A stretch of 64,000 nucleotides of DNA from the NCBI GenBank assembly GCA_041662665.1, contig JBAZSC010000001.1, positions 257,511 through 321,510 of the forward strand. Reading direction: 5' to 3'. The translations under genes were made by a program, and so were the position numbers. The notes under the pieces are model-generated. The model did no database searches. It was not told the origin of the DNA and worked only from the letters and a program-made list of their open reading frames with translations. The stretch's first letter is position 1; the number at the start of each line of letters is the position of its first letter. The stretch is from Patescibacteria group bacterium. GTDB taxonomy: Bacteria; Patescibacteriota; JABMPQ01; JAQVVF01. Positions 2,395 through 44,197 of the stretch are shown here, one piece after another.

Positions 2395-2433
2395 TTCTGC
2401 GTTTTCTGCGTTCGATTCTGCGTTATTTTGCGA
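2395..2433. repeat. CTGCGTT-unit repeat (family A), half-element with three direct CTGCGTT units
   Basis: cttCTGCGTTttCTGCGTTcgattCTGCGTTattttgcg. The same units recur at 22068, 32553, 34712 and 60618. Confidence 0.7.
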
Positions 2434-2486
2434 AATAAACAGAATGGAATGCGCAAAACATATAAAATATACTTAACTATAAATTT

Positions 2487-6783: not shown

Positions 6784-6868
6784 TATAAATATAATATATT
6801 GTTTTGATTAAGTCAGGTTTAATACTTGACTTAATTTAATTAATATATTAATATATTTTTATTGGTTT

Positions 6869-7125
6869 GCACCTTTCCCGGAGCCAGCAAGAGGCTCCAT
6901 CACCAGGAGGAAAAGCAGAATGGCAGCTGAGACCAAGACCCCGTCCTACGACTTCGTTCCCGCAACCTCCGCCAACGGTGGTCGGATCTTCGCAGTGGTC
7001 GAGACCACCAAGATCGCTACCCCCCATGAAGGAGGTTCGGACAAGCCGGAGAACGTGAGGCCCTGCAAGAGCAGGACGATTCACGGGCGGGGCAAGAAGC
7101 AGTAAGCTTCAGCTCTAGATTAATT
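6869..7125. other. GC-anomalous island (about 60% GC in a 30% GC context); candidate structured RNA or acquired micro-gene
   Basis: Every frame on both strands is open (ORFs 6848-7084, 6867-7058, 6920-7105, 7017-7253). AGGAGG at 6905-6910 sits 9 nt before the ATG at 6920 of a 61-codon ORF with GC-rich third positions. Local hairpins include GGAGCC/GGCTCC and GGTGGTC/GACCACC. Confidence 0.4.
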
Positions 7126-7245
7126 GTTTTTTGTAAAATACACGTTCTTTTTTTAACCATATAGTCCGATTCGTCGGGCTCTTTTTTTGGCCTCACTCGA
7201 ATGCTTTTTCGAATATTTCGAATGCCATAGTATTGTAATTTATCA

Positions 7246-7275: not shown

Positions 7276-7360
7276 GGAGAGGTCGCATAGTGGCCTAGTG
7301 CGCAGGCTTGGAAAGCTTGTATATCGAAAGATATCGAGGGTTCGACTCCCTCCCTCTCCG
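7276..7360 (+). tRNA. tRNA-Ser (anticodon GGA)
   Basis: Manual fold: acceptor GGAGAGG/CCTCTCC, anticodon stem CAGGC/GCTTG with loop TTGGAAA, long variable arm, T-arm GAGGG-TTCGACT-CCCTC, discriminator G. CCA is not encoded. Confidence 0.85.
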
Positions 7361-7495
7361 TCTTCGCCCGCCGAAGCTTTAGCAAAAGCGAAGGCGGGAA
7401 AGATGAGTATTTAAATTAATATCTGTTTTTTTATAATTCTTGGGCGGGCTTCGACGGACAAAGTCCGCTTCTACTGATGCTTTAGCGAAGGTGGA
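7361..7495 (+). repeat. tRNA-Ser 3'-flank unit with GCTTTAGC-type hairpins (family B); copy 1
   Basis: The flank contains CCCGCCgaaGCTTTagcAAAGCgaaGGCGGG, then atatctgttttttt, then GGCGGGCTTCGACGGACAAAGTCCG. A near-identical block follows the second tRNA-Ser at 8336-8450. Confidence 0.7.
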
Positions 7496-8248: not shown

Positions 8249-8335
8249 GGAGAGGTGCCTGAGCGGCCGAAAGGACTAGTCTTGAAAACTAGCGCAGCCT
8301 CACGGTTGCCGTGGGTTCGAATCCCACCCTCTCCG
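8249..8335 (+). tRNA. tRNA-Ser (anticodon TGA)
   Basis: Acceptor GGAGAGG/CCTCTCC, anticodon stem CTAGT/ACTAG with loop CTTGAAA, long variable arm, T-arm GTGGG-TTCGAAT-CCCAC. It is a paralog of the tRNA at 7276. Confidence 0.85.
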
Positions 8336-8450
8336 TCTTCGCCCGCCGTAGCTTTAGCAAAAGCGAAGGCGGGATAGCTAAGTAAAAAAGTCAATATCTG
8401 TTTTTTTGTATTTCACAGGCGGGCTTCGACGGACAAAGTCCGTTTTTTGG
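8336..8450 (+). repeat. tRNA-Ser 3'-flank unit (family B); copy 2
   Basis: tcttcGCCCGCCgtaGCTTTAGCaaaagcgaaGGCGGG ... GGCGGGCTTCGACGGACAAAGTCCG. It is collinear with 7361-7495. Confidence 0.7.
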
Positions 8451-9720: not shown

Positions 9721-11046
9721 TTGTATTTCATGTCTCACAAAGAAAAAGTTTTAGATATCATAAAACAACTTAAAAATCTTAAATCGCAAAATCAGCCAAT
9801 CTCTTTTTCAAAAAAAACAGTTTCTCATTTTGTTCCATTGGCTCATACAAAAAAAGAAAAGCTTCCAAAGATAAATTTAAAATCTTTGGATTCTTTAATT
9901 AAAATTGATCCTCAAAAAAATATTGGAGTTGCTGAACCAGGCCTAACATTTTCGGAATTACTTAAAGAATCTTTGAAGCATAATTTAATTCCGGCAGTTG
10001 TTCCAGAATTAAAAACAATTACATTAGGTGGCGCAATTTCTGGTTGTTCAATAGAATCAATGTCTTACAGATATGGCGGTTTTCATGATAGCTGTTTAGA
10101 ATATGAAATAATTACAAGCAACGGTGAAATTGTCACTTGTTCAAAAGAAAAAAACCAAGATATTTTTGACATGATTCATGGATCTTATGGAACATTAGGA
10201 ATAATTTCAAAAATAAAGTTTAAACTTTTACCTGCAAAACCATTCGTCCATTTAACTTATAAAAAATATAATAATTTTAAAAAGTTTTGGTCTGTTTTAC
10301 AAAAATATTGCCAAGAAAAACAATATGATTTTATTGACGGCATAATTTATAACAAAAATTTATTTATTTTATGTTTAGGTAATATGGTAGATGAGGCGCC
10401 ATATACTTCAAGGTACGATTGGTTAAAAATATTTTATAAATCAGTTGTCAAAAAAGAGGAAGATTATTTCAAAATTTACGATTATTTTTACCGTTACGAT
10501 GCTGATTGCCATTGGTTATCAAAAAAAATTCCGTTAATGGAAACACTTTTTGGCAGATTGTTTTTTGGAAAATTTGTTCTAGGTTCAACAAATTTAATAA
10601 AATTATCTAAAAAATTTGGTCCAAAAATTAATAAAGGCAAAAATCCAGATGTTGTAGTTGATGTCTTTATTCCTCATAATAATTTTCCAAAATTTTACGA
10701 TTGGTATAAAACAGATTTTGATTTTTTTCCATTATGGATTGTGCCATACAAAGCTCCAAAAATTTATCCTTGGATTTCAGATGATCTAGCTAGTAAAAAT
10801 GATGATGCTTTTTTCATTGATGCTGCAATTTATGGCAAGGAAAATAATGAAAAAAATATTAATTATGCTAAAATATTAGAGGACAAAGTTTTTGAACTTA
10901 ATGGCATCAAGACTTTAATTTCACAAAATTATTATTCCAAAGACAGATTTTGGGAAATCTATAATCAAGAAAATTTTAATAAAGTTAAACAAAAAACGGA
11001 TCCAAATAATTTGTTTAATGGTCTATATTTAAAGATGGTGAAATAA
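9721..11046 (+). CDS. FAD-binding (PCMH-type) oxidase, DprE1/alditol-oxidase-like
   Basis: FAD-binding domain signatures GGAISGCSIESMSYRYGGFHDS and GSYGTLGIISKIKFKL. Length 441 aa, immediately after an SDR gene. Confidence 0.6.
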   Translation: MYFMSHKEKVLDIIKQLKNLKSQNQPISFSKKTVSHFVPLAHTKKEKLPKINLKSLDSLIKIDPQKNIGVAEPGLTFSELLKESLKHNLIPAVVPELKTITLGGAISGCSIESMSYRYGGFHDSCLEYEIITSNGEIVTCSKEKNQDIFDMIHGSYGTLGIISKIKFKLLPAKPFVHLTYKKYNNFKKFWSVLQKYCQEKQYDFIDGIIYNKNLFILCLGNMVDEAPYTSRYDWLKIFYKSVVKKEEDYFKIYDYFYRYDADCHWLSKKIPLMETLFGRLFFGKFVLGSTNLIKLSKKFGPKINKGKNPDVVVDVFIPHNNFPKFYDWYKTDFDFFPLWIVPYKAPKIYPWISDDLASKNDDAFFIDAAIYGKENNEKNINYAKILEDKVFELNGIKTLISQNYYSKDRFWEIYNQENFNKVKQKTDPNNLFNGLYLKMVK

Positions 11047-16505: not shown

Positions 16506-17324
16506 ATGCCCGAAAAACCACAAATAGAATTACAAGATATTCAACAAAATCCTGAACAAAAATCTGAAACAGGTTTAGAAATTGTAAAAACTCCAGAATC
16601 AGAACAATTTGTTGAACATGTCAATGAAATTCATGAAGCAGTACAACGTGATAGGAAAGTTACATATGGCCAAGTTGCAGATTTAAGAAAAGATTTAGAA
16701 GGATTTAAATTAGATGTTTGTGGCGAGCAAATGACTTTGGCAGAAATCAGAGAAATTCCAGATTTCGGATATAATTATGAAATTTGGAAATCTATAATGG
16801 AAGGAAATATTTTTTTACATAACCAAGTTACTGGTCTTATTCCTAACGTAACTCGAAAGTTAGTTGATGAAAATAATAAAAAAAACGAAAAGATCAGTAA
16901 TCAGGATGATTGGAAAGCTTTATATTTTGATTCTTTAAAAAAAATTTCACCTAAGATAGCAAAGGAATTTAGAAGTCTTAAGTCAGGAATCTATTTGAGT
17001 ACATTTACAGAACTTTCCGATGAAGTTATATTCGAGTTGTCCCATTCAGCTAGTTTATTTATTTCTTTAAGTCATCTAGTATCATTATCTGATCAGCAAG
17101 CAGAATATTTGTCTCAATTTCAAGGTAGGCTCAATTTAAACGGTGTCAATTCTTTATCGGACAATGCTGCGCGATTTATCGGGCAACGTGGTTCTTATAC
17201 TTGGTTAGATAGTCTAGTCCATATCTCTGATAATGGATTGAAATTTTTAGGTAAAGGGAGAATCGATCTATCTCCAGAGTTGGGAAAAAGATTAAAGAAA
17301 TTAAAAGCTGAACAAAATGCTTAA
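16506..17324 (+). CDS. paralog family P (conserved about 95-aa N-domain plus RI-type LRR-like about 25-aa repeats), member 1
   Basis: N-domain PEKPQIELQDIQQ..ETGLEIVKTPESEQFVEH.NEIHEA....K.TYGQVADLRKDLE is shared by five genes. C-terminal repeats follow L..L.SLSD..A..LS...G.L.LN...SLSD.AA. Confidence 0.6.
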   Translation: MPEKPQIELQDIQQNPEQKSETGLEIVKTPESEQFVEHVNEIHEAVQRDRKVTYGQVADLRKDLEGFKLDVCGEQMTLAEIREIPDFGYNYEIWKSIMEGNIFLHNQVTGLIPNVTRKLVDENNKKNEKISNQDDWKALYFDSLKKISPKIAKEFRSLKSGIYLSTFTELSDEVIFELSHSASLFISLSHLVSLSDQQAEYLSQFQGRLNLNGVNSLSDNAARFIGQRGSYTWLDSLVHISDNGLKFLGKGRIDLSPELGKRLKKLKAEQNA

Positions 17325-17375
17325 AGATTTTAACTTACAATAACGCCAAGCCGTCATAAAAAATAAATTAAAATT

Positions 17376-18239
17376 ATGTCCGAAAAACCACCAATAGAAT
17401 TAAAAGATATCGCCCAAGAATCAGAACCAAAATCTGAAACAGGTTTAGAAATTGTTGAAACTCCAGCATCAAAACAATTTGTTGAACATGCCAATGAAAT
17501 TCATGAAGCAATAGAACATGATAAAAAAATTACATATGGCCAAGTTGCAGATTTAAGAAAAGATTTAGAGCAATTTAAATTTGATGTATGTGGTGAGCAA
17601 ATGACTATTGCAGAAATAAAACAAATACCAGATTTTCAACATAATTATGAAATTTGGAAAAAAATAATGTCTGGAGAATTAATTAGTCGATGGAGCCAAA
17701 ATGAAGAAGATCTTACTTATCTTTTGCCAAAGGTGGCACAAGTTCTAGTTGAAGAATATAATAAAAAAAATGAAGAAACTTTCAAAATACATGATTATGG
17801 CGTTGAAGATCTTATGGACTTAAAGCTAAGCAACATCAAAAGAATCACTCCTGATACAATAAAAAATTTTAAAGATTTTAAAGCTAATATTTTTTTAGAT
17901 GGTTTGACCGAAATATCTGACGAATCAATGCTCGAATTATCAAAATCTTCAAGTTACCTTATTTCATTATCAAGCTTAACGTCTTTATCGGACAAACAAG
18001 CAGAATATTTATCTCAATTCAATGGCGGTAGATTATACTTAAATAGTATAAAATCACTTTCAGATTATGCTGCAAATAAATTTGCGCACAGCAAAGTTAC
18101 GTACGTATTATTAAGAGGTGTAGAAACTATTTCCGATTCTGCTCTTTTGCAGTTAGAAGGAACAAAAGTTGTTCTATCTGATACACAAAAAGAAAGGCTA
18201 AAAAGTTTAAAAGCCAAACAAAATGCTTCAAGATCTTAA
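17376..18239 (+). CDS. paralog family P, member 2
   Basis: About 85% nucleotide identity to member 1 over the first 300 nt. The same LRR-like C-terminal repeats are present. Confidence 0.6.
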   Translation: MSEKPPIELKDIAQESEPKSETGLEIVETPASKQFVEHANEIHEAIEHDKKITYGQVADLRKDLEQFKFDVCGEQMTIAEIKQIPDFQHNYEIWKKIMSGELISRWSQNEEDLTYLLPKVAQVLVEEYNKKNEETFKIHDYGVEDLMDLKLSNIKRITPDTIKNFKDFKANIFLDGLTEISDESMLELSKSSSYLISLSSLTSLSDKQAEYLSQFNGGRLYLNSIKSLSDYAANKFAHSKVTYVLLRGVETISDSALLQLEGTKVVLSDTQKERLKSLKAKQNASRS

Positions 18240-18282
18240 TCTAGAACAAACGCCAAGCCGTCATAAAAAATAAATTAAAACT

Positions 18283-18921
18283 ATGCCAGAACAACCATCG
18301 CAAGTAGAATTAAAAGATATTCAACAAACGAAAGAAACAGAATCTGAAACAGGTTTAGAAATTGTTAAAACTCCTGAATCAGAACAATTTGTTGAACATG
18401 CCAATGAAATTCATGAAGCAATGCAAGCTGATGGGAAAATAACTGCTGGCCAAGTTGCAGATTTAAGAAAAGATTTAGAAGGATTAAAATATGATTTTTA
18501 CGGAGAACAATTATCAATTGCCGAAATCAGGCAAATCCCAGATCTTCAACATAATTTAAAAATTTGGCAAGAAATTTCTAATGGAAAATTTCGTAATTAT
18601 AAGGAATTAACTTATTTAACTCCAGAAATTGCTCAGAAAATTGTTTATCCCGCCTCAATCAAAAGAGTCGGTCACGCACCTATTCCACTTATCGATTTTC
18701 CACCCAGAGATTTATATTTAAACAACTTAAAAACATTATCTGTCGAATCGGCAAGGATATTGTTGAGGAGATTGTCAACAGGTGATCGAATACTTTCTCT
18801 TCAAGGTTTAGTAGATTTCCCTGAAGAAGAATTAGGATTATTAGATGATCCAAATATTCATTTGTCCCGAGAGCTTACATTAAAGTTGATTGAAAAAAAA
18901 GAAGAGATGGGTTTAATTTAA
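18283..18921 (+). CDS. paralog family P, member 3 (shorter, divergent C-terminus)
   Basis: Shares the N-domain with members 1 and 2. The stop lies 3 nt before the helicase ATG. Confidence 0.55.
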   Translation: MPEQPSQVELKDIQQTKETESETGLEIVKTPESEQFVEHANEIHEAMQADGKITAGQVADLRKDLEGLKYDFYGEQLSIAEIRQIPDLQHNLKIWQEISNGKFRNYKELTYLTPEIAQKIVYPASIKRVGHAPIPLIDFPPRDLYLNNLKTLSVESARILLRRLSTGDRILSLQGLVDFPEEELGLLDDPNIHLSRELTLKLIEKKEEMGLI

Positions 18922-18924
18922 AAT

Positions 18925-21900
18925 ATGTTAAAAGATCTTAATACAGAACAACTCCAAGCCGTCAAACACGAAACAGGTCCACTACTTATCGTTGCCGGCG
19001 CTGGCACAGGAAAAACAACAGCCATTACTAAAAAATTGGCTTATTTAATTTTGGAAAAAAAAGTAAAGCCAGAAAATATTTTAGCGTTAACTTTTACTGA
19101 AAAAGCAGCTGCTGAAATGGAGGAGCGAGTAGACAAATTAATGCCTTATGGTTATACAGATTTATGGATTGAAACCTTTCATGGTTTTTGTGATCGAATT
19201 TTAAAAGATAACGCCTTAGATGTTGGCTTAGACCCAAATTACAAATTATTAACTTCTGCAGAACAATGGATGTTCATCAAATCCAAAATTTTTGATTTTG
19301 ATTTGAAATATTATAGACCATTAGGCAATCCTAATTCATTTATTTCAGAATTAATCAAACATTTTTCTCGCGCTAAAGATGAAAATATCTTGCCAGAAGA
19401 TTATTTGAAATTCGTCAAAAAACTATCCGCCTCCGCTCCTGCGGGAGCTTCGGCGGACAAAGAAACCATAGACAAAATGTCAGAAGTTGCCAAATCTTAC
19501 AAAAAATATCAAGAATTAATGGTCGCCGAAAGTCAGATGGATTTTGGTGATTTAATTATTGAAACATTAAAATTATTTAAAAAAAGAAAAAATATTCTAA
19601 AAAAATATCAAAAACAATTCCAATATATTCTAGTTGATGAATTTCAAGATACTAATTTTGCCCAATATCAATTATTGCAACTTTTAGCACCGCCACAAAA
19701 TAATTTAACTGTTGTCGGCGATGATGACCAATGCCTGCCTCCTGATTCCAAAATTGAAACAAAAACTGGAATAAAGAAAATAAATAAAATAAAAAAAGGA
19801 GAATTAGTTTTATCAGCAGTGGGCAAGGGACATACCTCTTATTATCAAGTTAATAAAGTTATCAAAAATAAAAAAAATGCTCGTTTCCTAAATATTTCAA
19901 CAAAAAATGGAAATAAAATTACAATTACTGATAATCACAAAATGTTTTGCTTTGTACCTTTAAAATCAGATAAAAAATATTACTATGTTTATTTAATGGA
20001 AAAAAGAAATTTAGGATATAGGCTTGGCATAACTAACGATTTAGCGACGCGATTAAGATTAGAACGAGGGGCTGATCGAATTATTGGTATTAAGTCCTTT
20101 AAATCAGAAATTGAAGCAAGATATTATGAAACATTGCTTTCATTAAAATATCAAATTCCTTTAACCTGTTTTTGTTTCCGTCCTGGAGTTTTTATGAATA
20201 AGGAACTGTTAGAAAAACTTTACCAAGAATTTGATACTTATAAAAATGCGGAAAGATTAGCCAAAGATTTAAAAATTGATTTATCAGCTCATCATTTTGC
20301 GTTAGATGCAGTTAATCGCGGTAGCAGTTTAAGAATAAAAATCATAATTGAACAGTGTTACCGTAAACATGTTAGCAAAGTCAGAAGAGGCATCCTTTTT
20401 GGACCCAAAATCAGTCATTCTGTAATAGTAGAAACATCGGACAAGAAAACTATTGAAACACTAAAGAAAAATGGTTTTAATTTAAGAAAAGCAAGAAAAA
20501 ATGGTTTTAGGTTTAAATATACAGATCAAGATTTTCAAAAAGTTGGACAAATCGCTTTAAAATTAGAAAAAATTACAGGCGGTATTTTAGAAACCAGATT
20601 TGAAGTTGGCGCATTAAATATTAAACACCGAAAAGCCTTGATGATGCCAGCCAAAAATTTGCTTGTTGGACATTTTTTACCTGTATTAAAAAAAGACAAT
20701 AAAGAAATTATTTATGATGAAATAATTGATATCAAAGAAAAAAATAAGACTAGCAATGTCTATGATTTAGAAATCGAAAAAACACATAATTTCATTGCTG
20801 ATAATATTGTTGTGCATAATTCTATCTATAAATTTCGCGGCGCTTCTGTTAGCAATATTTTGCAATTCCAAAAAGATTTTCCCAAAAGCAAAAAAATAGT
20901 TTTGACAGAAAATTATCGATCAGTTCAGCCAATTCTCGATTTAGCATATAATTCAATTCAATTAAATAATCCAGATCGGTTAGAAGCAAAATATAAAATC
21001 AATAAAAAATTAAAATCACAAATTAAATCTAAAAGCGATTTAGCAATCAATCATATCCATAAGGCAACATATGAGCAAGAAGCAGTTGATGTCATCAAAA
21101 ATATTATTAATCTAAAACAAAAAGATAAATCAACTTGGTCAGATTTTGCAATTCTAGTGCGCGCAAATTCTTCTGCTGAAATATTCATCAATCTTTTATC
21201 TTCAAAAAAAATTCCATATCAATTCATTGCATCTCGCGGACTTTATTCTCGCCCAGAAATTATGGATTTAATTTCGTATTTGCGTGTTGTTGCAAATTTT
21301 TATGATAATATTAATTTTTATCGCGTTTTAAGTTTGCCAATTTTTAAATTAAATTCAGAAGATATAATTAGACTTGTTGCCTATAGCCGTCGTAAAAATT
21401 TAAGCATTTTTGATTTAGCTTGCACACCAAGTCGAATTGTCGGACTGAATAAAGATAGTGTTGAAAAATTTAAAGTTGTTGTTGAACTAGTTAAAAAACA
21501 TGCAAAACTTAGTTTGGAAAAAAATGCCGCTGAAGTTTTGTTAGACTTTTTAAAAACATCCGGTTATTTAAAATATTTGCAAACCAATAAAGATTTAGAA
21601 GCAGAAAAAAAGATTTTGAATATCTCATTATTTTTCAAAAGAATCCAAGAATTGCAGGAAAATAAAAAATTAACTGTTCCAGAATTTATTGATCAATTAG
21701 ATTTGATGATTGAAGCAGGCGAGGATCCATCGCCAATCCAATTAGATGAAGGCCCAGATTCAATCAAAATTTTGACTATCCATTCTTCAAAAGGATTAGA
21801 ATTTGATAATGTTTTTGTCGTCAATATGGTTGAAGGAAAATTTCCATCTCGAAACAGAAAAGATTTAATTGAATTGCCAGAAAAATTAATTAAAGAGCAA

Positions 21901-22902
21901 TTGCCAGATTCAAATTCCAATATTCAAGAAGAAAGAAGACTATTTTATGTAGCAATGACTCGTGCAAAGAAAAGGTTATTTTTTACATCTGCCAATGATT
22001 ATGGCGGAAAAAGAAAAAAGAAAATTTCTAGATTTTTAGTTGAAATTAAAAAACATTTTGATAAAAATTCCGCGTTTTCTGCGTTAGATTCTGCGTGTTT
22101 CCGCGATAACAATATTTTAACGCAGAATAACGCTGAACCTAACGCAGAAAACGCGAAAAAGAAAATAAGATATTCTTTACCAAGTAAATTTTCATACACT
22201 CAGCTTAAAGCATTTGAAACTTGTCCGCATCAATACCGTTTCCGCCATATTATTGGTTTGCCAAGTTCAGGCGCTTCTTCTCAAAGTTATGGAAAAACAA
22301 TGCATGCAGTTTTGCAAAACTTTTTCGCTGATTTGCAAAAAGGAAAAAGTCCGACAGAAAAAGATTTATTAAGTTATTATGACAGTTTTTGGATCGATGA
22401 TTTTTATCAAGACAAAAAGCACGAACAAAAAAGATTTGAAGAAGGCAAGAAAGCTTTGCAAGAATTTTACAAAATAAATAATAAAAATTTAAAAGCGCCG
22501 TTATTTTTAGAAAAAGGCTTTAACCTAAGAATTAAAGACACATGTCTAAAAGGCCAGATTGATCGCATTGATAAATTAGATGATGGCACAGTTGAGATCG
22601 TTGATTATAAAACAGGCAAATTGCCAAAGAATGAAAAGGAAGTAGAGAAAAATGAGCAATTATTGATTTATTCTTATGCCTGCCAAAAAGTATTAAATTT
22701 AAAACCATCAAAACTAAGCCTTTATTTTATTGACCAAAACAAAAAATATTCTGCTAAACAAAATTCAATTAAAGAAGAAAAGATAATTCAAAAAGTCCAA
22801 GAACTAATTGCTAAAATTAAAGAATCAGAATTTATTGCCAAGCCAGGCTTTGCATGCAAATTTTGTGACTATAAGGATATCTGTGAACATGCTAAACATT
22901 GA
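18925..22902 (+). CDS. UvrD/PcrA-type SF1 helicase fused to a C-terminal RecB/Cas4-like PD-(D/E)xK nuclease with Cys cluster; intein-containing
   Basis: Walker A GAGTGKTT, motif III VVGDDDQ|...|SIYKFRGA split by the intein, and TENYRS. The C-terminal CPHQYRF...IDRIDKL...IVDYKTGK...CKFCDYKDICEH is an AddB/Cas4-like nuclease with four Cys. Confidence 0.8.
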   Translation: MLKDLNTEQLQAVKHETGPLLIVAGAGTGKTTAITKKLAYLILEKKVKPENILALTFTEKAAAEMEERVDKLMPYGYTDLWIETFHGFCDRILKDNALDVGLDPNYKLLTSAEQWMFIKSKIFDFDLKYYRPLGNPNSFISELIKHFSRAKDENILPEDYLKFVKKLSASAPAGASADKETIDKMSEVAKSYKKYQELMVAESQMDFGDLIIETLKLFKKRKNILKKYQKQFQYILVDEFQDTNFAQYQLLQLLAPPQNNLTVVGDDDQCLPPDSKIETKTGIKKINKIKKGELVLSAVGKGHTSYYQVNKVIKNKKNARFLNISTKNGNKITITDNHKMFCFVPLKSDKKYYYVYLMEKRNLGYRLGITNDLATRLRLERGADRIIGIKSFKSEIEARYYETLLSLKYQIPLTCFCFRPGVFMNKELLEKLYQEFDTYKNAERLAKDLKIDLSAHHFALDAVNRGSSLRIKIIIEQCYRKHVSKVRRGILFGPKISHSVIVETSDKKTIETLKKNGFNLRKARKNGFRFKYTDQDFQKVGQIALKLEKITGGILETRFEVGALNIKHRKALMMPAKNLLVGHFLPVLKKDNKEIIYDEIIDIKEKNKTSNVYDLEIEKTHNFIADNIVVHNSIYKFRGASVSNILQFQKDFPKSKKIVLTENYRSVQPILDLAYNSIQLNNPDRLEAKYKINKKLKSQIKSKSDLAINHIHKATYEQEAVDVIKNIINLKQKDKSTWSDFAILVRANSSAEIFINLLSSKKIPYQFIASRGLYSRPEIMDLISYLRVVANFYDNINFYRVLSLPIFKLNSEDIIRLVAYSRRKNLSIFDLACTPSRIVGLNKDSVEKFKVVVELVKKHAKLSLEKNAAEVLLDFLKTSGYLKYLQTNKDLEAEKKILNISLFFKRIQELQENKKLTVPEFIDQLDLMIEAGEDPSPIQLDEGPDSIKILTIHSSKGLEFDNVFVVNMVEGKFPSRNRKDLIELPEKLIKEQLPDSNSNIQEERRLFYVAMTRAKKRLFFTSANDYGGKRKKKISRFLVEIKKHFDKNSAFSALDSACFRDNNILTQNNAEPNAENAKKKIRYSLPSKFSYTQLKAFETCPHQYRFRHIIGLPSSGASSQSYGKTMHAVLQNFFADLQKGKSPTEKDLLSYYDSFWIDDFYQDKKHEQKRFEEGKKALQEFYKINNKNLKAPLFLEKGFNLRIKDTCLKGQIDRIDKLDDGTVEIVDYKTGKLPKNEKEVEKNEQLLIYSYACQKVLNLKPSKLSLYFIDQNKKYSAKQNSIKEEKIIQKVQELIAKIKESEFIAKPGFACKFCDYKDICEHAKH
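19426..19462 (+). repeat. family B nested-hairpin repeat inserted in-frame in the helicase CDS
   Basis: TCCGCCtccGCTCCtgcgGGAGCttcGGCGGAcaaag encodes SASAPAGASADKE. It is architecturally identical to the intergenic 27905-27941 CCCGCCttcGCTCCtcgtcatttGGAGCtacGGCGGG. Confidence 0.55.
19732..20820 (+). mobile_element. intein (363 aa) inserted in helicase motif III, with putative homing-endonuclease domain
   Basis: Begins with Cys (CLPPDSKIETKTG) right after VVGDDDQ and ends VVHN before S of SIYKFRGA, so excision restores the canonical VGDDDQSIYKFRGA. The internal YYYVYLMEKRNLGYRLGITNDLATRL is GIY-YIG-like. Confidence 0.75.
22068..22158 (+). repeat. CTGCGTT-unit palindromic repeat (family A) inserted in-frame in the helicase CDS
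   Basis: ccgCGTTttCTGCGTTagattCTGCGTgtttccgcg...AACGCAGAAtaacgctgaacctAACGCAGAAAACGcg. It translates in-frame as SAFSALDSACFRDNNILTQNNAEPNAENAKK, lying between the helicase and nuclease parts. Confidence 0.65.
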
Positions 22903-23037
22903 TTTTCGTCAGTAGACAATTCCAATTTTTTTCGTTATAATAGCAATAGATATTCGGATATTATGATATTCGGAAATTGTTTTGATATCGACAATATCCG
23001 CAATATCTCAATTTCCGAATATCTTAAATATTAAATA

Positions 23038-23415
23038 ATGACACTTCGTTCTTATCTCCTCGGCATGTTTCTATCCACAATCGTCTGCTGGCTTGCTTTC
23101 GGTCTGATTTTGTATTATGTTAATCCATTCAATACTGGAGCATTAGGATTGATTGCTTTTTATATCAGCTTGTTTTTTGCAAGTATTGGAACTTTAACTA
23201 TTGCAGGTTTTTATTTGCGTGTCTGGTTTTCCAAAAACGAAATTTTATTCGCTCATGTCAATCCATCTTTTCGTCAAGCAATTTTATTGTCAATCATTTT
23301 AGTCGGCTCATTAGTTTTGCAAGCGTTTAGATTATTAACTTGGTGGGATGGTGCATTATTTGTTTTAAGTATTGTGCTAATAGAATTTTATTTTATATCG
23401 CGCAATACTGCTTAA
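23038..23415 (+). CDS. hypothetical membrane protein (4 TM helices)
   Basis: 125-aa hydrophobic ORF preceded by an AT-rich inverted repeat (ATTCGGAAATTG...CAATTTCCGAAT). No motif recognised. Confidence 0.4.
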   Translation: MTLRSYLLGMFLSTIVCWLAFGLILYYVNPFNTGALGLIAFYISLFFASIGTLTIAGFYLRVWFSKNEILFAHVNPSFRQAILLSIILVGSLVLQAFRLLTWWDGALFVLSIVLIEFYFISRNTA

Positions 23416-23431
23416 GTTTATTTTTAAAAAT

Positions 23432-23824
23432 ATGGACAATGAATATGGTCAATCTATAGAGGAAACAGTATTGGAAAAAGAAAAACCAACTGAAAAAGAA
23501 TGGGAAGATTATAAAACAGAAATTGAAAATTTTAGAGGACAGATTTATCAAAAAGCTGAAGAAGTTTTAGGAAATGACGATGGTGGTGATTGGGTTTTTC
23601 GCAAAGTGCAGGATTTTACATATGATGTTTCAGCAAATATCCCAAACTATCGTTTCTTTATTGCTTTTCATGGGTTGATTGGTAGTGGCGTCAGTATTGA
23701 AAAAGTTCCGTTTTTAGATTTGCCATCGCCATACAATGTTAAAGATTTTTGCAACAAACTTTTACTTGAGCTTGATGACAAAGAAAGTTGCCAAAAATAT
23801 TTGCGTGAAAGAAAAGAAAAATAA
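23432..23824 (+). CDS. hypothetical protein
   Basis: 130-aa ORF packed tightly after the previous gene. No motif recognised. Confidence 0.35.
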   Translation: MDNEYGQSIEETVLEKEKPTEKEWEDYKTEIENFRGQIYQKAEEVLGNDDGGDWVFRKVQDFTYDVSANIPNYRFFIAFHGLIGSGVSIEKVPFLDLPSPYNVKDFCNKLLLELDDKESCQKYLRERKEK

Positions 23825-23881
23825 AGAATTATATATATTAGCATTAAGTTAAAATTCATTAATTAGTAATACATAAAAATT

Positions 23882-24127
23882 ATGTCATTTGACGAAAAAG
23901 GACCTAGCGCACAAGAAGTAGAACCAAAGAAAAAATTTATGGTTAGAGCTGAAATGGAGGCTTGGGGAAAAGATGGTTCCGCAATTGACGATTTATGGCG
24001 AGAAGTTAATATAGAGGTTGAAGCAGAAGATGACGATGATATTGATGACGAAATCGTAGACAAGCTTTTTGACATGGATTTTGGAAACGCAAAACCGACA
24101 GGACGTTTTGAAAAAACTGAAATTTAA
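23882..24127 (+). CDS. hypothetical small acidic protein
   Basis: 81 aa with a poly-D/E stretch (EAEDDDDIDDEIVD). No motif recognised. Confidence 0.3.
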   Translation: MSFDEKGPSAQEVEPKKKFMVRAEMEAWGKDGSAIDDLWREVNIEVEAEDDDDIDDEIVDKLFDMDFGNAKPTGRFEKTEI

Positions 24128-24150
24128 TTAAAACTTATTTGTGAAAATAT

Positions 24151-25173
24151 ATGAACATAACAGAATTAAAACAGCAAGCCTTAACTGAAATCCAAAACGC
24201 AAATTCAACACAACTGGTTGAGCAAATTAGAATTAAATTTTTAGGCCGAAAATCTGGTTTGCTTACAAAAATAATTCAAACCTTGCCAACATTAAATGTT
24301 GATCAAAGAAAAAAACTTGGTTCGCAAAGCAATCAAGTTAAGCATGAAATAAATCAGGCTTTGAATAATAAAATTATTGCTTTGAAATCAAAAAGCCATC
24401 AAACTGGCGAATTTTTTGACACAACCTTGCCAGGCATCAGACCAGAGATCGGACATTTGCATCCTATTACATTAGTTTCGCGCGAAGTTGAAGAAATTTT
24501 TAAATCAATGGGCTTCGAAGTCCATGAAGGTGCTGAACTAGTTACTGATTATTATAATTTTGAATCATTAAATATTCCCAAAGATCATCCAGCACGAGAT
24601 TCACAAGATACTTTTTTTGTCAATTTTAAACCTGAAGAAAAATATGTCATGCGTACCCAAACATCTGCAATGCAAGTGAAGATTATGGAAAATAGAAAAC
24701 CTCCTCTCAAAATAGTAGTCCCAGGACGCTGTTTTCGAAATGAATCAACTGATGCATCTCATGAACATACTTTTTATCAATGCGAAGGTTTTATCGTTTC
24801 TGAAAAAATTTCTGTCGCTAATTTAATTTGTACTCTAAAAGAATTTCTAAAAGCCTATTTCAAAAAAAATGATGTTAAAGTAAGACTCCGTCCAGGATAT
24901 TTTCCTTTTGTTGAACCAGGCTTTGAGCTTGATTTTCAATGTGCAATTTGTGGTGGTAAAGGCTGTCCTGTCTGCAAACAAACTGGCTGGGTAGAATTAA
25001 TTCCTTGTGGCATGATTCATCAGAAAGTTTTTCAATTTGCAGGTTATCCAAAAAACAAATATACAGGTTTTGCTTTTTGTATAGGTTTAACAAGATTAGC
25101 GATGATGAAATATGGAATTAATGATATCAGATTATTTATGGCTGGTGATTTAAGATTTATAAATCAATTTTAA
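24151..25173 (+). CDS. pheS: phenylalanine--tRNA ligase alpha subunit
   Basis: FDTTLPGIRPEIGHLHPIT...FFVNFKPEEKYVMRTQTS and class II motif 3 GFAFCIGLTRLAM. Confidence 0.9.
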   Translation: MNITELKQQALTEIQNANSTQLVEQIRIKFLGRKSGLLTKIIQTLPTLNVDQRKKLGSQSNQVKHEINQALNNKIIALKSKSHQTGEFFDTTLPGIRPEIGHLHPITLVSREVEEIFKSMGFEVHEGAELVTDYYNFESLNIPKDHPARDSQDTFFVNFKPEEKYVMRTQTSAMQVKIMENRKPPLKIVVPGRCFRNESTDASHEHTFYQCEGFIVSEKISVANLICTLKEFLKAYFKKNDVKVRLRPGYFPFVEPGFELDFQCAICGGKGCPVCKQTGWVELIPCGMIHQKVFQFAGYPKNKYTGFAFCIGLTRLAMMKYGINDIRLFMAGDLRFINQF

Positions 25174-29905: not shown

Positions 29906-31966
29906 ATGGCTATAAAGAAAGACACCAAAAAAAACGCTCCTAAAAATCCATCAGAAAGCTATGGAGCTTCTTCAATTACAGTTTTAAAAGGCCTTGATCC
30001 TGTCCGCAAACGTCCAGGTATGTATATTGGCGGTACTGGCATTGAAGGCCTTCATCATTTAATTTGGGAAGTTGTAGATAACTCAATTGATGAAGCTATG
30101 GCTGGATATTGTAAAAATATTAAAGTTACTTTATTCGAAGGTAACAAAGTTACAGTTTATGATGATGGCCGTGGTATTCCAGTCGAAATTCACAAAGCTA
30201 CCAAGAAATCAACACTTGAAACTGTCTTGACTGTTTTGCACGCTGGTGGAAAATTCGGTGGTGGCGGTTATAAAGTTTCTGGTGGCTTGCATGGTGTTGG
30301 TGTTTCTGTTGTTAATGCATTATCACAATATTTGAAAGCTGAAGTTACAAGAGATGGTTATCTTTGGGAGCAAGAATATAAACGAGGCAAGGCACAAGGA
30401 AAAATTAAAAAAGTAAAAAAAGCTTCTGGCACTGGCACAGCAATTACTTTTGATCCAGATCCAGAAATTTTTCCAAAGATAGAATTTGATTGGAAAACAA
30501 TTGTTACTCATTTGCGCCAACAAGCTTATTTAACAAAAGGCGTCAAAATTTCCATCACTGATGAAAGAAAAGGACATGAATTAGCGCCAAATATTCCACG
30601 CGCTCTGACTTTTTATTTTGAAGGTGGAATTTTATCATATGTAAAATTTTTAAATCGCACTGAAAAAGTAGTTCATCCAAATCCTTTTTATATTGAAAAA
30701 GCAAAAGGCGATTGTTTGGTAGAAGTAGCGTTGCAATATACTGAAGAGATCAAAGGTATTGAAATGACTTTCGCCAATAATATTTATACTCCAGAAGGTG
30801 GTACTCATCTGATGGGTTTCAGAACTGCTCTAACTCGTGTTATTAATGATTATGCTCGAAAAAATGGTTACCTCAAAGAAAAAGAAGACAATTTAACTGG
30901 TGATGATGTTCGTGAAGGACAGACAGCAGTTGTTTCTCTAAAACTTCCAGAGCCTCAATTTGAAGGCCAAACAAAAGCAAAATTAGGCAATTCCGAAATT
31001 AGGCCAATTGTTAGTTCAATTGTTTATGAATATTTCTCTCAATTCTTAGAAGAGCATCCGCAAGATGCGCGAGCTATTATGGCAAAAACTTTGCTAGCTT
31101 GCAAAGCCAGACTCGCTGCTAAAGCTGCCAAAGAAACAGTAATTAGAAAAGGCATTATGGAAGGTCTGACTTTGCCAGGAAAATTAGCCGATTGTTCATC
31201 AAGAAAACCAGAAGAATCTGAATTATACATTGTTGAGGGCGACTCCGCTGGTGGTTCTGCCAAACAAGGTCGTGATCGAAATTTCCAAGCCATTCTTCCT
31301 CTTCGCGGTAAAATTTTAAATGTCGAAAGAGCAAGAATTGACAAAATGCTAGGTTCAAAAGAAATCAAAGCTTTGATTATTGCTATGGGTATGGGAGTTG
31401 GTGAAGAAAAAGAAATTGAAAAAATGCGTTATCACAGAATAATTATCATGACTGATGCTGATGTTGATGGCGCTCACATCAGAACTTTGCTATTAACTTT
31501 TTTCTATCGCTATTATGCAGAAATAATCGAAAAAGGCTATCTTTATATTGCTCAACCGCCATTATATCGAGTTGAAAAGAATAAAAAAGTCGATTATGCC
31601 TATACTGATCAAGATAAAGAAAGAATCTTAAAAGAAATTGAAAAAACATCTGTTGCCAAAAAAACTAAAAAAAGCAAAATAGAAAAAGCTGGATTTACTG
31701 TTAAAGAATTGGAAACAGGTGAAGAAAATGGTGAAGAAAAAGTCGCTGGCGTTAATATTCAGCGTTACAAAGGTTTGGGTGAAATGAATCCTGAACAATT
31801 ATGGGAAACAACAATGGATCCAAAAAATCGCGTTATGCTTCAAGTTAAAGTAGAGGACGCAGCAAAAGCTGATGAAACTTTTGATATTTTGATGGGCAAT
31901 GAAGTTGAGCCTCGCAAACGTTTTATTCAAACTCATGCTGCCAAAGTTAAAAATTTGGATATCTAA
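29906..31966 (+). CDS. gyrB: DNA gyrase subunit B (type IIA topoisomerase ATPase subunit)
   Basis: GHKL ATPase motifs LHHLIWEVVDNSIDEAMAG and GGLHGVGVSVVNALS. Toprim EGDSAGG and PLRGKILNVE, then C-terminal QRYKGLGEM. Confidence 0.88.
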   Translation: MAIKKDTKKNAPKNPSESYGASSITVLKGLDPVRKRPGMYIGGTGIEGLHHLIWEVVDNSIDEAMAGYCKNIKVTLFEGNKVTVYDDGRGIPVEIHKATKKSTLETVLTVLHAGGKFGGGGYKVSGGLHGVGVSVVNALSQYLKAEVTRDGYLWEQEYKRGKAQGKIKKVKKASGTGTAITFDPDPEIFPKIEFDWKTIVTHLRQQAYLTKGVKISITDERKGHELAPNIPRALTFYFEGGILSYVKFLNRTEKVVHPNPFYIEKAKGDCLVEVALQYTEEIKGIEMTFANNIYTPEGGTHLMGFRTALTRVINDYARKNGYLKEKEDNLTGDDVREGQTAVVSLKLPEPQFEGQTKAKLGNSEIRPIVSSIVYEYFSQFLEEHPQDARAIMAKTLLACKARLAAKAAKETVIRKGIMEGLTLPGKLADCSSRKPEESELYIVEGDSAGGSAKQGRDRNFQAILPLRGKILNVERARIDKMLGSKEIKALIIAMGMGVGEEKEIEKMRYHRIIIMTDADVDGAHIRTLLLTFFYRYYAEIIEKGYLYIAQPPLYRVEKNKKVDYAYTDQDKERILKEIEKTSVAKKTKKSKIEKAGFTVKELETGEENGEEKVAGVNIQRYKGLGEMNPEQLWETTMDPKNRVMLQVKVEDAAKADETFDILMGNEVEPRKRFIQTHAAKVKNLDI

Positions 31967-32380: not shown

Positions 32381-32552
32381 TTTTTCCTCCTCCTCAAGGT
32401 GCTACAGAAAAAATATCATTGTTTTTGATTTTTGTCAATATCATCCCAAAAAATAAAAAACTCTTGACAATCTAATTATTTATTAATATAATGGAACTAA
32501 TAAATAGTGGTTCCAGCCGCTGTTTTTTTAAACATAAATTACTGATTGGAAA

Positions 32553-32645
32553 TCTTTCTGCGTTTTCCGCGTTGGATTCCGCATTTTCCGCGTTAAAAAC
32601 TTTATCGCAGAAAAACGCAGAATTGAACGCAGAAAACGCGGAATA
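32553..32645. repeat. CTGCGTT-unit palindromic repeat (family A), intergenic copy
   Basis: tttCTGCGTTttccGCGTTggattccgcattttccGCGTTaaaaactttatcGCAGAAaAACGCAGAAttgAACGCAGAAAACGCGgaa. Confidence 0.7.
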
Positions 32646-33452: not shown

Positions 33453-33460
33453 ACAAAAAA

Positions 33461-33570
33461 GAATCTGGAATCTAGAATCTCGAATCTAGAATAGAATTTA
33501 GAATGTGAAATATTCTAAATTCTACATTCTTTATTCATTCTAGATTCTAAATTCAAGATTCCAGATTCTC
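33461..33570. repeat. long AT-rich perfect-ish palindrome (GAATCTAGAAT / ATTCTAGATTC arms)
   Basis: aatctggaatctagaatctcgaatctagaatagaatttagaatgtgaaatattc | taaattctacattctttattcattctagattctaaattcaagattccagattc. Confidence 0.7.
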
Positions 33571-33586: not shown

Positions 33587-34126
33587 ATGTTAATTATCCA
33601 AGCTCTATATTTTATTCTGCCAGCCGGAATAGCCAACATGGCTCCAGTTTTCGCGAAGAAGATTAATTTTTTAAATATACCTGTTGATTTCGGTCAAAGT
33701 TTTCGCGGTCAAAGAATTTTTGGTGATCACAAAACTTGGCGAGGATATTTTGCTGCAATTCTAGTTGGTGTTATCATCGCCGGTATCCAAGCATATCTAT
33801 ATTTCAATTTCGAATTCTTTCAATCCTTGACAATCTTCCCATTTCGGGCGTATAATTTTATACTATTCGGTTTTTTATCAGCTTTAGGTGCAATGGTTGG
33901 GGATACAGTTAAAAGTTTTTTCAAACGTCAAGCACATGTACAGCCTGGACAAAAATTTGTTCCTTGGGATCAAATTGATTTCATCCTCGGCGCATTAATC
34001 TTTATCTCATTCTATTTTCGACCAAATTGGTTAGTCTATGTCATTTTATTAATCCTAGTTCCATTCTTCCATATCTTAATTAATAGAATTGGATTCTGGT
34101 TAGGAATACATAAGACGAAGTGGTAA
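33587..34126 (+). CDS. CDP-archaeol synthase family (CarS/DUF46-like) membrane protein
   Basis: 179 aa, multi-TM. GDHKTWRGYF matches the CarS G.NKTWEG motif. It lies between nusG and rplK. Confidence 0.5.
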   Translation: MLIIQALYFILPAGIANMAPVFAKKINFLNIPVDFGQSFRGQRIFGDHKTWRGYFAAILVGVIIAGIQAYLYFNFEFFQSLTIFPFRAYNFILFGFLSALGAMVGDTVKSFFKRQAHVQPGQKFVPWDQIDFILGALIFISFYFRPNWLVYVILLILVPFFHILINRIGFWLGIHKTKW

Positions 34127-34284
34127 ATGTAATACGAATTTACGAAATTAATTTGCGACCTTAGAAGCAAATTAATGCTAATATAGCGAAAATACGAATC
34201 GACGTATTCGCATATTCGCAGATTGGCATAAATTCGTAGATTCGTATTATATATAAATTATTAACTAAGTATTAAACAATATTT

Positions 34285-34707
34285 ATGGCAAAAATCAAGA
34301 CAGTGATCAAACTTCAAATTCCAGCTGCAAAAGCAAATCCAGCTCCTCCAATTGGTCCAGCATTAGGCCAACATGGTTTGAATATTCAGGAATTTTGTAC
34401 AAAATTTAATGCTGCAACAAAAGACAAAGCTGGAGATATTATTCCAGTAGAAATTACTGTTTACGAAGATCGAACTTACGATTTTATTTTAAAAACTCCT
34501 CCAGCAGCTGAATTATTAAAAAAAGCTGCAAAAATTAAAAAAGGTTCAGGAACTCCAAATAAACAAAAAGTTGGAGTAGTCACAAAAGCTCAATTGCAAG
34601 AAATTGCAAAAGTAAAAATGCCTGACCTAAATACTGATAATGTTGAACAAGCAATGAAAATCATTGAAGGTACAGCAAAAAATATGGGACTTACCATTAA
34701 AGGTTAG
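34285..34707 (+). CDS. rplK: 50S ribosomal protein L11
   Basis: [34 protein letters not shown] is the canonical uL11 N-terminus. Confidence 0.92.
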
Positions 34708-34711
34708 TTTT

Positions 34712-34808
34712 TCTTTCTGCGTTTTTCTGCGTAAGTTTTTGCGTGATTCTGCGTTCAAGATTTTAACGCAGAGATACGCAGAATTTGACGCAGAAGACGC
34801 AGAATTAA
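34712..34808. repeat. CTGCGTT-unit palindromic repeat (family A), intergenic copy
   Basis: tttCTGCGTTtttCTGCGTaagtttttGCGTgattCTGCGTTcaagattttAACGCAGAgatACGCAGAAtttgACGCAGAAgACGCAGAAtt. Confidence 0.7.
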
Positions 34809-34831
34809 TATAAACGTCAATCAAAAATAAA

Positions 34832-35419
34832 ATGTTTATCAAAGAAATAAAAAAGTATTCTGATAATATTTTACCGCTTAAGTTTTATAAATTCTTAGAG
34901 CGAATAGGGTTGTCTCCAAACAAGCTTACCCTTATCGCTCTTTTTTTTAAGATTTTAGTACTATATTTTTTTTATAATGGACAAATCGTTTTAGGCGGAA
35001 TTTTCATCGTCTGTGATTATCTTTTTGATTATATGGATGGCACAATGGCAAGACGTTTAGACAAAGTTACGCCATTTGGTACTTTTTATGATACTGTTTT
35101 AGATAGATTTTTTCGAACTGCAGGCTGGCCATTATCTTTGGCATTTGGTAATATAATTACCTTCAAAATTGCTGCATTAGTAGTTGCCTTCAATTTACTC
35201 TTGATTTTTTCATCTAGCGTGGTAGAATCATATAAGTTGCGTCATTTCCCATACATGCTAAATGTATTTTACTTAATTCCTTATGGCGCATTGTTAAATC
35301 AAGTTGAGTTATTTGCTACATTAGAAGCTATTGTTGCCTTTATCTTACTTATTTTTAACACTATTACAATAATCGTTTTAAATTTTAATTATAATAGTGG
35401 AAGCTTGAAAAAGCGTTAA
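34832..35419 (+). CDS. CDP-alcohol phosphatidyltransferase family protein
   Basis: Signature D-x2-DG-x2-AR-x8-G-x3-D-x3-D is present as DYMDGTMARRLDKVTPFGTFYDTVLD. Multi-TM protein lying between rplK and rplA. Confidence 0.7.
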   Translation: MFIKEIKKYSDNILPLKFYKFLERIGLSPNKLTLIALFFKILVLYFFYNGQIVLGGIFIVCDYLFDYMDGTMARRLDKVTPFGTFYDTVLDRFFRTAGWPLSLAFGNIITFKIAALVVAFNLLLIFSSSVVESYKLRHFPYMLNVFYLIPYGALLNQVELFATLEAIVAFILLIFNTITIIVLNFNYNSGSLKKR

Positions 35420-39228: not shown

Positions 39229-39257
39229 TTCGTTATTTTTTGTTATGTTATAATTTA

Positions 39258-39388
39258 TGTAGAATCATGAATTATGAATTATGAATCATGATTAGAATAA
39301 TGAATTAAGAATCCTGAATTCATTATTCTTTATTCTAAATTCAAATCATAATTCATAATTCATAATTCTTGATTCATAATTCACATTC
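39258..39388. repeat. long AT-rich palindrome (ATGAATTATGAAT / ATTCATAATTCAT arms)
   Basis: tgtagaatcatgaattatgaattatgaatcatgattagaataatgaattaagaatcctgaattcattattctttattctaaattcaaatcataattcataattcataattcttgattcataattcacattcta. Confidence 0.7.
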
Positions 39389-42121: not shown

Positions 42122-42206
42122 TCTTTGTTTGAAACACAAAACCGACTCTCGTCGGTTTTTTCTTTGTCCGCCGTAGCTTTAGCGGAGGCGGATTCTTTGT
42201 AACTAT

Positions 42207-42264: not shown

Positions 42265-42267
42265 GAA

Positions 42268-43569: not shown

Positions 43570-43615
43570 ATAATTAAGAATTCGATTTCGTACATTTTTT
43601 ACTAGACTTTTCTGT

Positions 43616-44163: not shown

Positions 44164-44197
44164 CAAAGTTTTAATAGCACCCTCAACTAGCATTAAG

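Follow-up and report, generated by a model that had tools for sequence, protein, structure and literature searches.

Short palindromic and tandem-unit repeats that lie between genes in a 64,000-nucleotide stretch of a Patescibacteria genome (GenBank assembly GCA_041662665.1, contig JBAZSC010000001.1, positions 257,511 to 321,510; hereafter the window) also lie in frame inside two of its conserved genes. These genes encode a UvrD/PcrA-type helicase fused to a nuclease and the tRNA methylthiotransferase MiaB, and the repeats occupy two places in each, which we number sites 1 to 4. The in-gene segments are homologous to intergenic copies, insert-free orthologues exist, elements are present or absent at orthologous spacers of related genomes, and all four sites fall in variable regions of the proteins. 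We consider it probable that these hairpin-forming repeats, which are short and non-coding and belong to several families, have spread over evolutionary time and that copies in genes survive in frame as translated linker peptide. This interpretation had been put forward in a first-pass annotation of the window, and our analysis supports it with corrections.

The window has a G+C content of ~31%, and its proteins match proteins of Patescibacteria (candidate phyla radiation, CPR) metagenome-assembled genomes (MAGs) at 100% identity. All four reported segments are present, within 1 to 3 nucleotides (nt) of the positions first given, and each lies in an uninterrupted, conserved open reading frame (ORF). 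For comparison we used four close relatives of the helicase (79 to 89% amino acid identity) and three of MiaB (77 to 80%). The DNA of the relatives was compared as syntenic loci, L001 to L003 on the helicase side and L004 to L006 on the miaB side. L002 and L004 belong to one genome, GCA_964574655.1, whose gene-wide nucleotide identity to the window is ~80%.

Four repeat families were distinguished. Family A consists of four TTCYGCGT units and their inverted copies (~87 nt), family B of nested CCGCC...GGCGG hairpins (~32 to 37 nt), family C of a 62-nt doublet with TTCTAC/GTAGAA ends, and family D of arrays of GATATTCG octamers. When a motif diagnostic of each family was counted in the window and in 100 shuffles, none of the 100 shuffles reached the observed count for any family (family A, 7 versus a shuffle mean of 0.2; family B, counted as GGAGCTWCGGCGGR, 6 versus 0.15; family C, 6 versus 1.0; family D, 9 versus 0.8). 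These counts and the alignments described below confirm that the segments inside genes match the intergenic repeat families. Family A was seen at four loci in the window (and on four more contigs from the same sample), family B at about six, and family C at two (Table 1).

Table 1. Host genes, in-gene sites and intergenic copies of repeat families A to D in the window
Feature	Position	Strand	Basis
UvrD/PcrA-type helicase fused to PD-(D/E)XK nuclease, 1325 amino acids; hosts sites 1 and 2 and an intein	18925-22902	+	ORF list, Pfam
Site 1, nested GC-rich hairpin of family B, 36 nt	19426-19461	+	sequence, indel versus relatives, motif count, fold
Site 2, family A palindrome in helicase-nuclease linker, 90 nt	22069-22158	+	arm complementarity, alignment, fold
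miaB, tRNA methylthiotransferase, 443 amino acids; hosts sites 3 and 4	44198-45529	-	Pfam UPF0004, Radical_SAM, TRAM; homologues named MiaB
Site 3, family C doublet in inter-domain linker, 62 nt	45137-45198	-	alignment, fold, pLDDT, relatives
Site 4, tandem array of family D octamers with weak 7-bp hairpin, 51 nt	44860-44910	-	motif count, relatives, fold
Intergenic family A palindrome, secE 5' leader	32556-32644		alignment, motif count
Intergenic family A palindrome, between rplK and next gene	34715-34805		alignment, motif count
Intergenic family A copy, one arm intact, second degenerate	2395-2459		alignment, motif count
Intergenic family B hairpin, closest relative of site 1, directly after pheT stop codon	27905-27941		fold scan, motif count
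Intergenic family C doublet, 62 nt, abuts miaA stop codon	42206-42267		alignment
Intergenic palindrome built from family D octamers, between promoter-like site and next start codon	22949-23023		motif count
Intergenic family D one-armed array	52846-52886		motif count

In the helicase-nuclease gene, site 1 reads TCCGCCTCCGCTCCTGCGGGAGCTTCGGCGGACAAA and makes up codons 168-179, 12 codons in frame that encode SASAPAGASADK. Its predicted fold (-19.4 kcal/mol) lies well below those of shuffled sequence, against which all minimum free energies (MFEs) were scored (z = -3.7). Comparison with the relatives revealed a clean 36-nt indel: L001 and L003 read GATCAG directly followed by GAAGAA, whereas L002 reads ...GATCAA TCCGCCTCCGCTCCTGCTGGAGCTACGGCGGACAAG GAAGAA... 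and the window carries the same hairpin, plus a 24-nt deletion immediately upstream. The window and L002 differ at three positions of the element, all unpaired (0 of 22 stem bases changed, versus 3 of the 14 other bases).

Site 2 lies between the Pfam domains UvrD_C (to residue 1023) and PDDEXK_1 (from residue 1089) of the same protein, which also matches UvrD-helicase and Intein_splicing and is 100% identical to a protein annotated "UvrD-helicase domain-containing protein" in a Patescibacteria MAG. Its 30 codons encode SAFSALDSACFRDNNILTQNNAEPNAENAK. The element has four TTCYGCGT units, a loop, and reverse-complement units of the ACGCRGAA type, three of them strict and the fourth (ACGCTGAA) degenerate. 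Over 43 nt, one arm (22067-22109) shows 91% complementarity to intergenic positions 32602-32644, the entire element can be aligned with three intergenic family A copies, and the fold is the strongest of the four sites (MFE -46.4 kcal/mol, z = -9.6). At this position, L001 and L002 have a non-palindromic linker of 27 to 28 residues, and L003 has other palindromes (GGCGAGACTCCGGAGTCTCG, TCTCGCCTGC...GCAGGCGAGA and GAGAATCATGATTCTC). Site 2 is therefore a replacement of the ancestral linker, by insertion and loss of the old linker, rather than a simple insertion. The L003 helicase gene contains GGCGAGA...TCTCGCC palindromes and, elsewhere, a further 10-codon hairpin.

The helicase gene is also interrupted by a 363-residue intein (19732-20820; GDDDQ|C...HN|SIYKFRGA; Pfam Intein_splicing and Hint). 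It is missing from the four nearest relatives, and distant CPR homologues carry an intein at the same site. A 433-residue intein is present in gyrB of GCA_964574655.1 (L002 15871-19230); gyrB of the window (29906-31966), L001 and L003 has none.

Site 3 of miaB is built of two inverted short palindromes with the ends TTCTAC...GTAGAA, an arrangement like that of the repetitive extragenic palindromic (REP) doublets called REPINs. It encodes LPCPWQGSRKKRTFAMGKVE, between the UPF0004 domain (residues 10-95) and the Radical_SAM domain (residues 149-333). The claim that this segment is homologous to an intergenic copy was borne out over its whole length, since the 62 nt at 45137-45198 align end to end with those at 42206-42267. 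The fold is strong on both strands (z = -6.6 and -8.2). The linker here spans 14 codons in L005 and L006, which lack the element, 21 in the window and 31 in L004, which shares the element and has an extra 30-nt hairpin inside the loop of the first palindrome. In L006 the linker, still 14 codons as in L005, holds an unrelated perfect 20-nt palindrome, GTGAAATTCATGAATTTCAC. As at site 2, the element has replaced the ancestral linker, by insertion and loss of the old linker.

Site 4 reads GATATTCG GATATTAA GATATTA GATATT, and its motif recurs in the intergenic stretches 22949-23023 and 52865-52886. It adds ~12 codons relative to L005 and L006, in a variable region of the radical-SAM domain where L004 has a different, lysine-rich insert of 13 codons. 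Because its fold is weak (z = -0.5 and -2.4), we describe site 4 as a one-armed tandem-unit array, not a palindrome. The description of the in-gene elements as palindromic therefore holds for sites 1 to 3 (z = -3.7 to -9.6) and fails for the fourth. Small ORFs on the opposite strand separate miaB from miaA in the window (43435-44197) and in GCA_964574655.1 (L004 11309-11925); in L005 and L006, miaB and miaA overlap directly.

Several further scans characterized the families across the window. A folding scan in 60-nt windows gave ~24 peaks that reached -20 kcal/mol; only four lie in confident coding sequence, and two of these four are sites 1 and 3. An Rfam scan of the window at gathering thresholds found five tRNAs and matched none of the repeat families to a known RNA family. 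We rejected intrinsic terminators, in which a T-run follows a GC-rich stem, as the identity of families A to D. The canonical terminators are separate hairpins (42138-42159, 28052-28035, 27977-27951 and others), and the terminator scan called no element of these families except for a weak six-pair call (42218-42233) within the intergenic family C copy. Two intergenic elements are located in 5' leaders; the one before secE sits downstream of a 12/12 promoter match (32464-32492).

Two contigs from an independent assembly (L148 and L137, Joint Genome Institute sample Ga0172379) are 100% identical to window positions 22034-25025 and 33930-35347. Each spans a family A element, so the elements are not assembly artefacts. 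A search of public genome contigs with a family A pattern (TTCTGCGTNNN...) gave, among the matches listed, mostly lone chance matches in unrelated taxa and is uninformative as a census, because 17 specified bases are too few for 596 Gb. A stricter scan of metagenomes returned 24 stretches, including 2 window-identical fragments and 4 more from the same sample; many of the remaining stretches were coding repeats of the acidic (DAE)n or the RRR type, with no relation to the family A element.

Where in the proteins do the elements lie? The first-pass annotation had placed every insertion in a linker or loop. This placement is supported, as all four sites fall in alignment-variable regions of the homologues. 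The two MiaB regions range from 7 to 63 and from 2 to 63 residues across 116 homologues. The check by structure modelling that had been proposed to establish placement in surface loops was made for MiaB. In the AlphaFold model (mean predicted local distance difference test score [pLDDT], 92.8), the sole internal low-confidence stretch, residues 111-130 (pLDDT 50-68), coincides with site 3, in support of such a placement; site 4 is modelled with confidence (pLDDT ~94).

The in-frame state of the gene copies does not extend to the families as a whole. It had been suggested that the elements tolerate or are selected for lengths that are multiples of three, and the intergenic copies do not support such selection as a property of the family. 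The cores of five intergenic family A copies measure 86, 88, 87, 85 and 87 nt and so represent every residue modulo 3, and each core has one to four stop-free frames of the six. The in-frame gene copies are thus survivors, not the expression of a built-in family property, since other insertions would destroy the gene. In an unbiased indel survey of 26 orthologue groups (the window and L001 to L006), 20 regions differed in length by 4 amino acids or more. Inteins account for two and ordinary or low-complexity indels for nine; the remaining nine are hairpin related, and all of these are in the helicase gene or miaB.

Alignment of orthologues had been proposed as the way to reveal an insert-free state, and that state was found: L001 and L003 lack the insert at site 1, L005 and L006 lack it at sites 3 and 4, and L001 and L002 have another linker at site 2. 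The ordering of gains and losses follows from the same loci. Sites 1 and 3 and the family C copy downstream of miaA, whose orthologue is present in L004, are carried by both the window and GCA_964574655.1. Because they are common to both genomes, sites 1 and 3 are the older ones and predate the split between them; with three lineages, one event suffices for each shared character. At these two sites the elements are 90 to 92% identical between the two genomes, versus 72 to 87% in the 270-nt flanks. Sites 2 and 4 are found in the window lineage alone. The elements had been offered as dated markers of mobility, and what the comparison yields is this relative order, with sites 2 and 4 younger than sites 1 and 3.

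The intergenic copies show turnover across the relatives as well. Three of them (families A and D) are specific to the window, and the orthologous spacers of relatives lack them. The rplK spacer holds a family A element in the window and measures 9 to 10 nt in L001, L004, L005 and L006; the family A element upstream of secE is absent from the orthologous site in L001; and the family D palindrome after the helicase gene (22949-23023) is absent from the orthologous place in L001, L002 and L003. Conversely, the thyX-tmk spacer has a complete family A element in L004 and 5 nt in the window, L005 and L006. The spacer after pheT keeps its architecture in the relatives with other units, CACTAATT in L002 and CACGAAT in L001 and L003. 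In GCA_964574655.1 we also observed family A arrays at the ends of coding sequences: at 2206-2300 and 1762-1800 of locus L048, they make up the C-terminal tails of AtpA (ATP synthase alpha; ...TQNDAEANAEKAENKSRNNAEVDADNADKK before the stop) and of a 140-residue ORF (...CKSSASSALASA before the stop).

The explanation of these observations that we consider probable is as follows. Over evolutionary time, families A to D would have reached new positions in the genome; most copies sit in spacers, beside terminators or in 5' leaders. For a copy in a gene to survive, the net length change would have to be a multiple of three, the frame that is read would have to be free of stops, and the site would have to be a tolerant linker or variable loop; freedom from stops would come easily to GC-rich units in a genome of 31% G+C. 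Copies that survive would then simply be translated as part of the linker, and the ancestral linker would often be trimmed later. We infer that the spread would occur by transposition of the DNA hairpin and that the gene for the responsible enzyme lies in another part of the genome. In family C, the doublet with its GTAG tags points to an enzyme of the REP-associated tyrosine transposase (RAYT) or IS200 type, and the nested insertions within hairpin loops in L004 would fit an enzyme that acts on single strands and targets hairpins.

Several results weigh against spread by transposition. No transposase (Y1, DDE or other) was detected by Pfam among 42 ORFs of the window, and no transposase, RAYT or insertion sequence was found among the called genes of L001 to L006. 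No clear target-site duplication was seen in four comparisons of filled and empty sites: site 1 is flanked by just a CA(A) microrepeat, and the rplK, secE and thyX-tmk spacers are AT-rich and partly diverged, with no duplication recognizable. The copy numbers seen are low. The two family C loci are ~3 kb apart and both are conserved in GCA_964574655.1, a pattern as compatible with a local duplication as with transposition. Sites 2 and 3, as replacements, call either for a deletion as a further event or for some other mechanism. Finally, the confinement of the site 1 changes to unpaired positions suggests that the hairpin itself could be under selection.

Could the palindromes instead have arisen in place? 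In such a scenario, replication slippage expands the units, intra-strand template switching copies the arm and gene conversion homogenizes the loci, with no transposition. We regard this as the main competing explanation, albeit an unlikely one. It would account for the finding that almost every spacer is built from a unit of its own, for the constant architecture of the post-pheT spacer with different units in each relative, for the perfect 20-nt palindrome in the L006 MiaB linker of unchanged length, and for the replacement rather than extension of the linkers at sites 2 and 3; it also needs neither the target-site duplication nor the transposase that we failed to see in the four comparisons and the window ORFs. 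However, complete family A elements keep the same 9-12-10-nt unit spacing and loop at unrelated loci in two genomes, elements appear whole where relatives have spacers of 5 to 10 nt, with no intermediates, and site 1 is an all-or-none indel of 36 nt. These data disfavor growth in place.

A marginally less likely alternative, and an improbable one in our view, is that the intragenic hairpins are kept for a function in cis, for example as an mRNA structure for translational pausing or processing at domain boundaries or as a binding array for a conserved protein, with the peptide as a by-product. The persistence of sites 1 and 3 across ~20% nucleotide divergence, with elements better conserved than their flanks, speaks for such a function, as do the restriction of site 1 changes to loop or bulge, the location of sites 2 and 3 exactly between domains, the two intergenic copies in 5' leaders, and the TTCYGCGT arrays that, among the matches listed, recur in distant genomes of CPR, Omnitrophica and Elusimicrobia. 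Yet in close relatives these sites are free of the elements or hold unrelated families, the nested insertion in L004 splits one palindrome of site 3, and only 2 of the 26 surveyed genes are affected. When site 3 was examined for compensatory changes between the window and L004, the two stem differences were not at paired positions and are not compensatory.

That the segments are native, lineage-specific linkers whose similarity to intergenic repeats is coincidental is refuted: although length variation in these regions is seen throughout the homologues, the helicase segment is 91% complementary over 43 nt to an intergenic copy, the 62-nt family C copies align at full length, none of the 100 shuffles reached the motif counts, and insert-free orthologues exist. 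The first-pass annotation had named the outcome that would favor such native linkers, namely, distant orthologues that conserve the same peptides. It was not observed, because the distant helicase and MiaB homologues conserve none of the four site peptides; the lengths of these regions are highly variable.

How does the preferred explanation, spread of repeat families with in-frame survival, compare with known systems? One close likeness is to the Rickettsia palindromic elements (RPEs), which are ~100 to 150 bp long, encode a conserved peptide per family and carry a CGTC tag (PMC3733652, PMC10969869). As with RPEs, several families of palindromic repeats in an AT-rich, reduced genome occupy intergenic positions as well as in-frame positions within conserved genes, where they are translated as an extra peptide at tolerant sites. 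Of the likeness to insertions of bacterial interspersed mosaic elements (BIMEs) and RPEs that had been proposed, the part on RPEs holds, in that insertion is in frame, into functional ORFs and at tolerant sites. The window elements do not appear to belong to the RPE families and are set apart by size and tag: they measure 32 to 90 nt, consist of tandem 8- to 10-nt units or nested GC hairpins, have no consistent CGTC end (the units contain TGCGTT or CGCGTT), and are hosted by a Patescibacteria MAG.

Intragenic GTAG/CGTC REPs offer a second precedent. REPs are mostly extragenic stem-loops, of which a minority lie wholly within ORFs (Di Nocera et al. 2013, PMC3733652); many of the host ORFs serve replication or repair, recB among them, and inverted dimers are common (PMC3733652). 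Precedent for intragenic REPs and RPEs is also described in PMC10969869. The Di Nocera survey lists Proteobacteria, Cyanobacteria, Chloroflexi, the Planctomycetes-Verrucomicrobia-Chlamydiae (PVC) group and a few other phyla; CPR is not listed (PMC3733652). Family C resembles GTAG REPs in its CTAC/GTAG ends, found at both loci in both genomes, whereas families A, B and D lack a GTAG or CGTC tag. Stem-loops with the 5- to 13-bp stem of a REP are formed by the family C units (CYTGCC-CRTG-GCARGG), and the family B hairpins also fold.

REPINs are moved by RAYT transposases and usually form large populations (PMC3116915, PMC3337134). Family C is like them in consisting of two inverted short palindromes and a spacer that together fold into one long hairpin (MFE of -31.5 for the intergenic and -30.6 for the miaB copy in 60-nt windows). 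It is unlike them in that the window yielded no RAYT gene and that each genome has two family C loci in the sequence examined (64 kb for the window). Tens to hundreds of copies per genome are characteristic of REPs and REPINs. Judged by such structural features, family C appears to be the only one of the four that passes as a GTAG REP or REPIN.

Miniature inverted-repeat transposable elements, or MITEs, are small and non-coding and form occasional in-frame fusions with host ORFs (PMC10969869). The window elements share with them small size, lack of coding function, inverted arms, presence or absence at orthologous sites and in-frame positions in host ORFs. Inverted arms, as in MITE terminal inverted repeats, are present in families A, C and D (the intergenic element at 22949-23023). 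They differ from MITEs in that we recognized no target-site duplication and saw no parent insertion sequence, either in the window or in the loci compared, and in that each arm is a series of short units and not a terminal inverted repeat of the classical type. In the yeast mitochondrial gene var1, GC clusters are embedded in frame. Mitochondrial genes of Nematomorpha contain coding palindromes (PMC6649704). Both cases resemble ours in placing hairpin DNA in frame in conserved genes of AT-rich, compact genomes, but they are organellar and involve different sizes and families. Our literature search turned up no paper that connects CPR or Patescibacteria to REPs or MITEs. The event is thus of a known kind, best known from Rickettsia and from intragenic REPs, for which we found no description in CPR.

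Similar features are visible in more distant genomes. A distant CPR MiaB (GCA_034659355.1, locus L127; ~51% amino acid identity) has hairpins in both of the same regions (10307-10393 and 10610-10801; z = -7.2 and -5.1), one of them holding a repeat of the GGATTCCCGC...GCGGGAATGAC type that is translated as ...WIPACAGMTG..., and another CPR MiaB (L128) has a tandem GAAATTGG array in the same region. Many CPR MiaB loops contain peptides that resemble translated repeats. Among the matches listed, TTCYGCGT/ACGCRGAA arrays and palindromes were also found in other CPR classes (L013, L039, L050, L052 and L078) and in one MAG each of Omnitrophica (L007) and Elusimicrobia (L086); the distant carriers of TTCYGCGT are mostly uncultivated lineages with 32 to 49% G+C. 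It is tempting to speculate, although we would not expect it to prove correct, that genome-specific palindromic or tandem-unit repeats routinely colonize the same permissive loops of core enzymes throughout CPR and are a leading source of protein length variation there, and that the recurrence of TTCYGCGT reflects a conserved trans-acting protein that copies or binds the units.

The general principle is already established in Rickettsia and for intragenic REPs, and what our data add is breadth rather than a new concept. For annotation, odd low-complexity peptides in conserved CPR proteins, as well as short spurious ORFs, become recognizable as translated genomic repeats instead of being taken for functional insertions specific to a lineage. 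For evolutionary studies, the elements are discrete gain and loss characters with which very similar uncultivated genomes can be ordered. For protein science, the sites mark where the helicase-nuclease and MiaB tolerate 12 to 30 extra residues. A genome of ~0.65 Mb with no transposase visible nearby still keeps active repeat families.

Other observations were made in the window. Many spacers hold a palindrome of tandem 7- to 10-nt units that vary by spacer (GAATYATG, GAATCTNG, TAGTTACT, TCGAAT...), as at 39250-39380, 33460-33569, 62320-62375, 2280-2330 and 60624-60680. Upstream of secE, a perfect -35/-10 match is followed by a small hairpin and T-run (GGAACTAATAAATAGTGGTTCC...TTTTTTT) at 32464-32530, an arrangement that is conserved in L001 and may be a leader or attenuator. 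Two paralogous gene arrays, three genes at 16506-18921 and two at 54913-56651, have 63 to 85% nucleotide identity and no Pfam match. Directly upstream of a tRNA-Ser gene, positions 6860-7130 are GC-rich (0.56-0.69), fold strongly and are overlapped only by doubtful short ORFs; comparison with Rfam gave no credible match for this region, which may be an unannotated structured RNA. Lastly, a 136-nt repeat with 87% identity (7335-7470 and 8310-8445) covers the 3' ends of two different tRNA-Ser genes and the family B-like hairpins that follow them.

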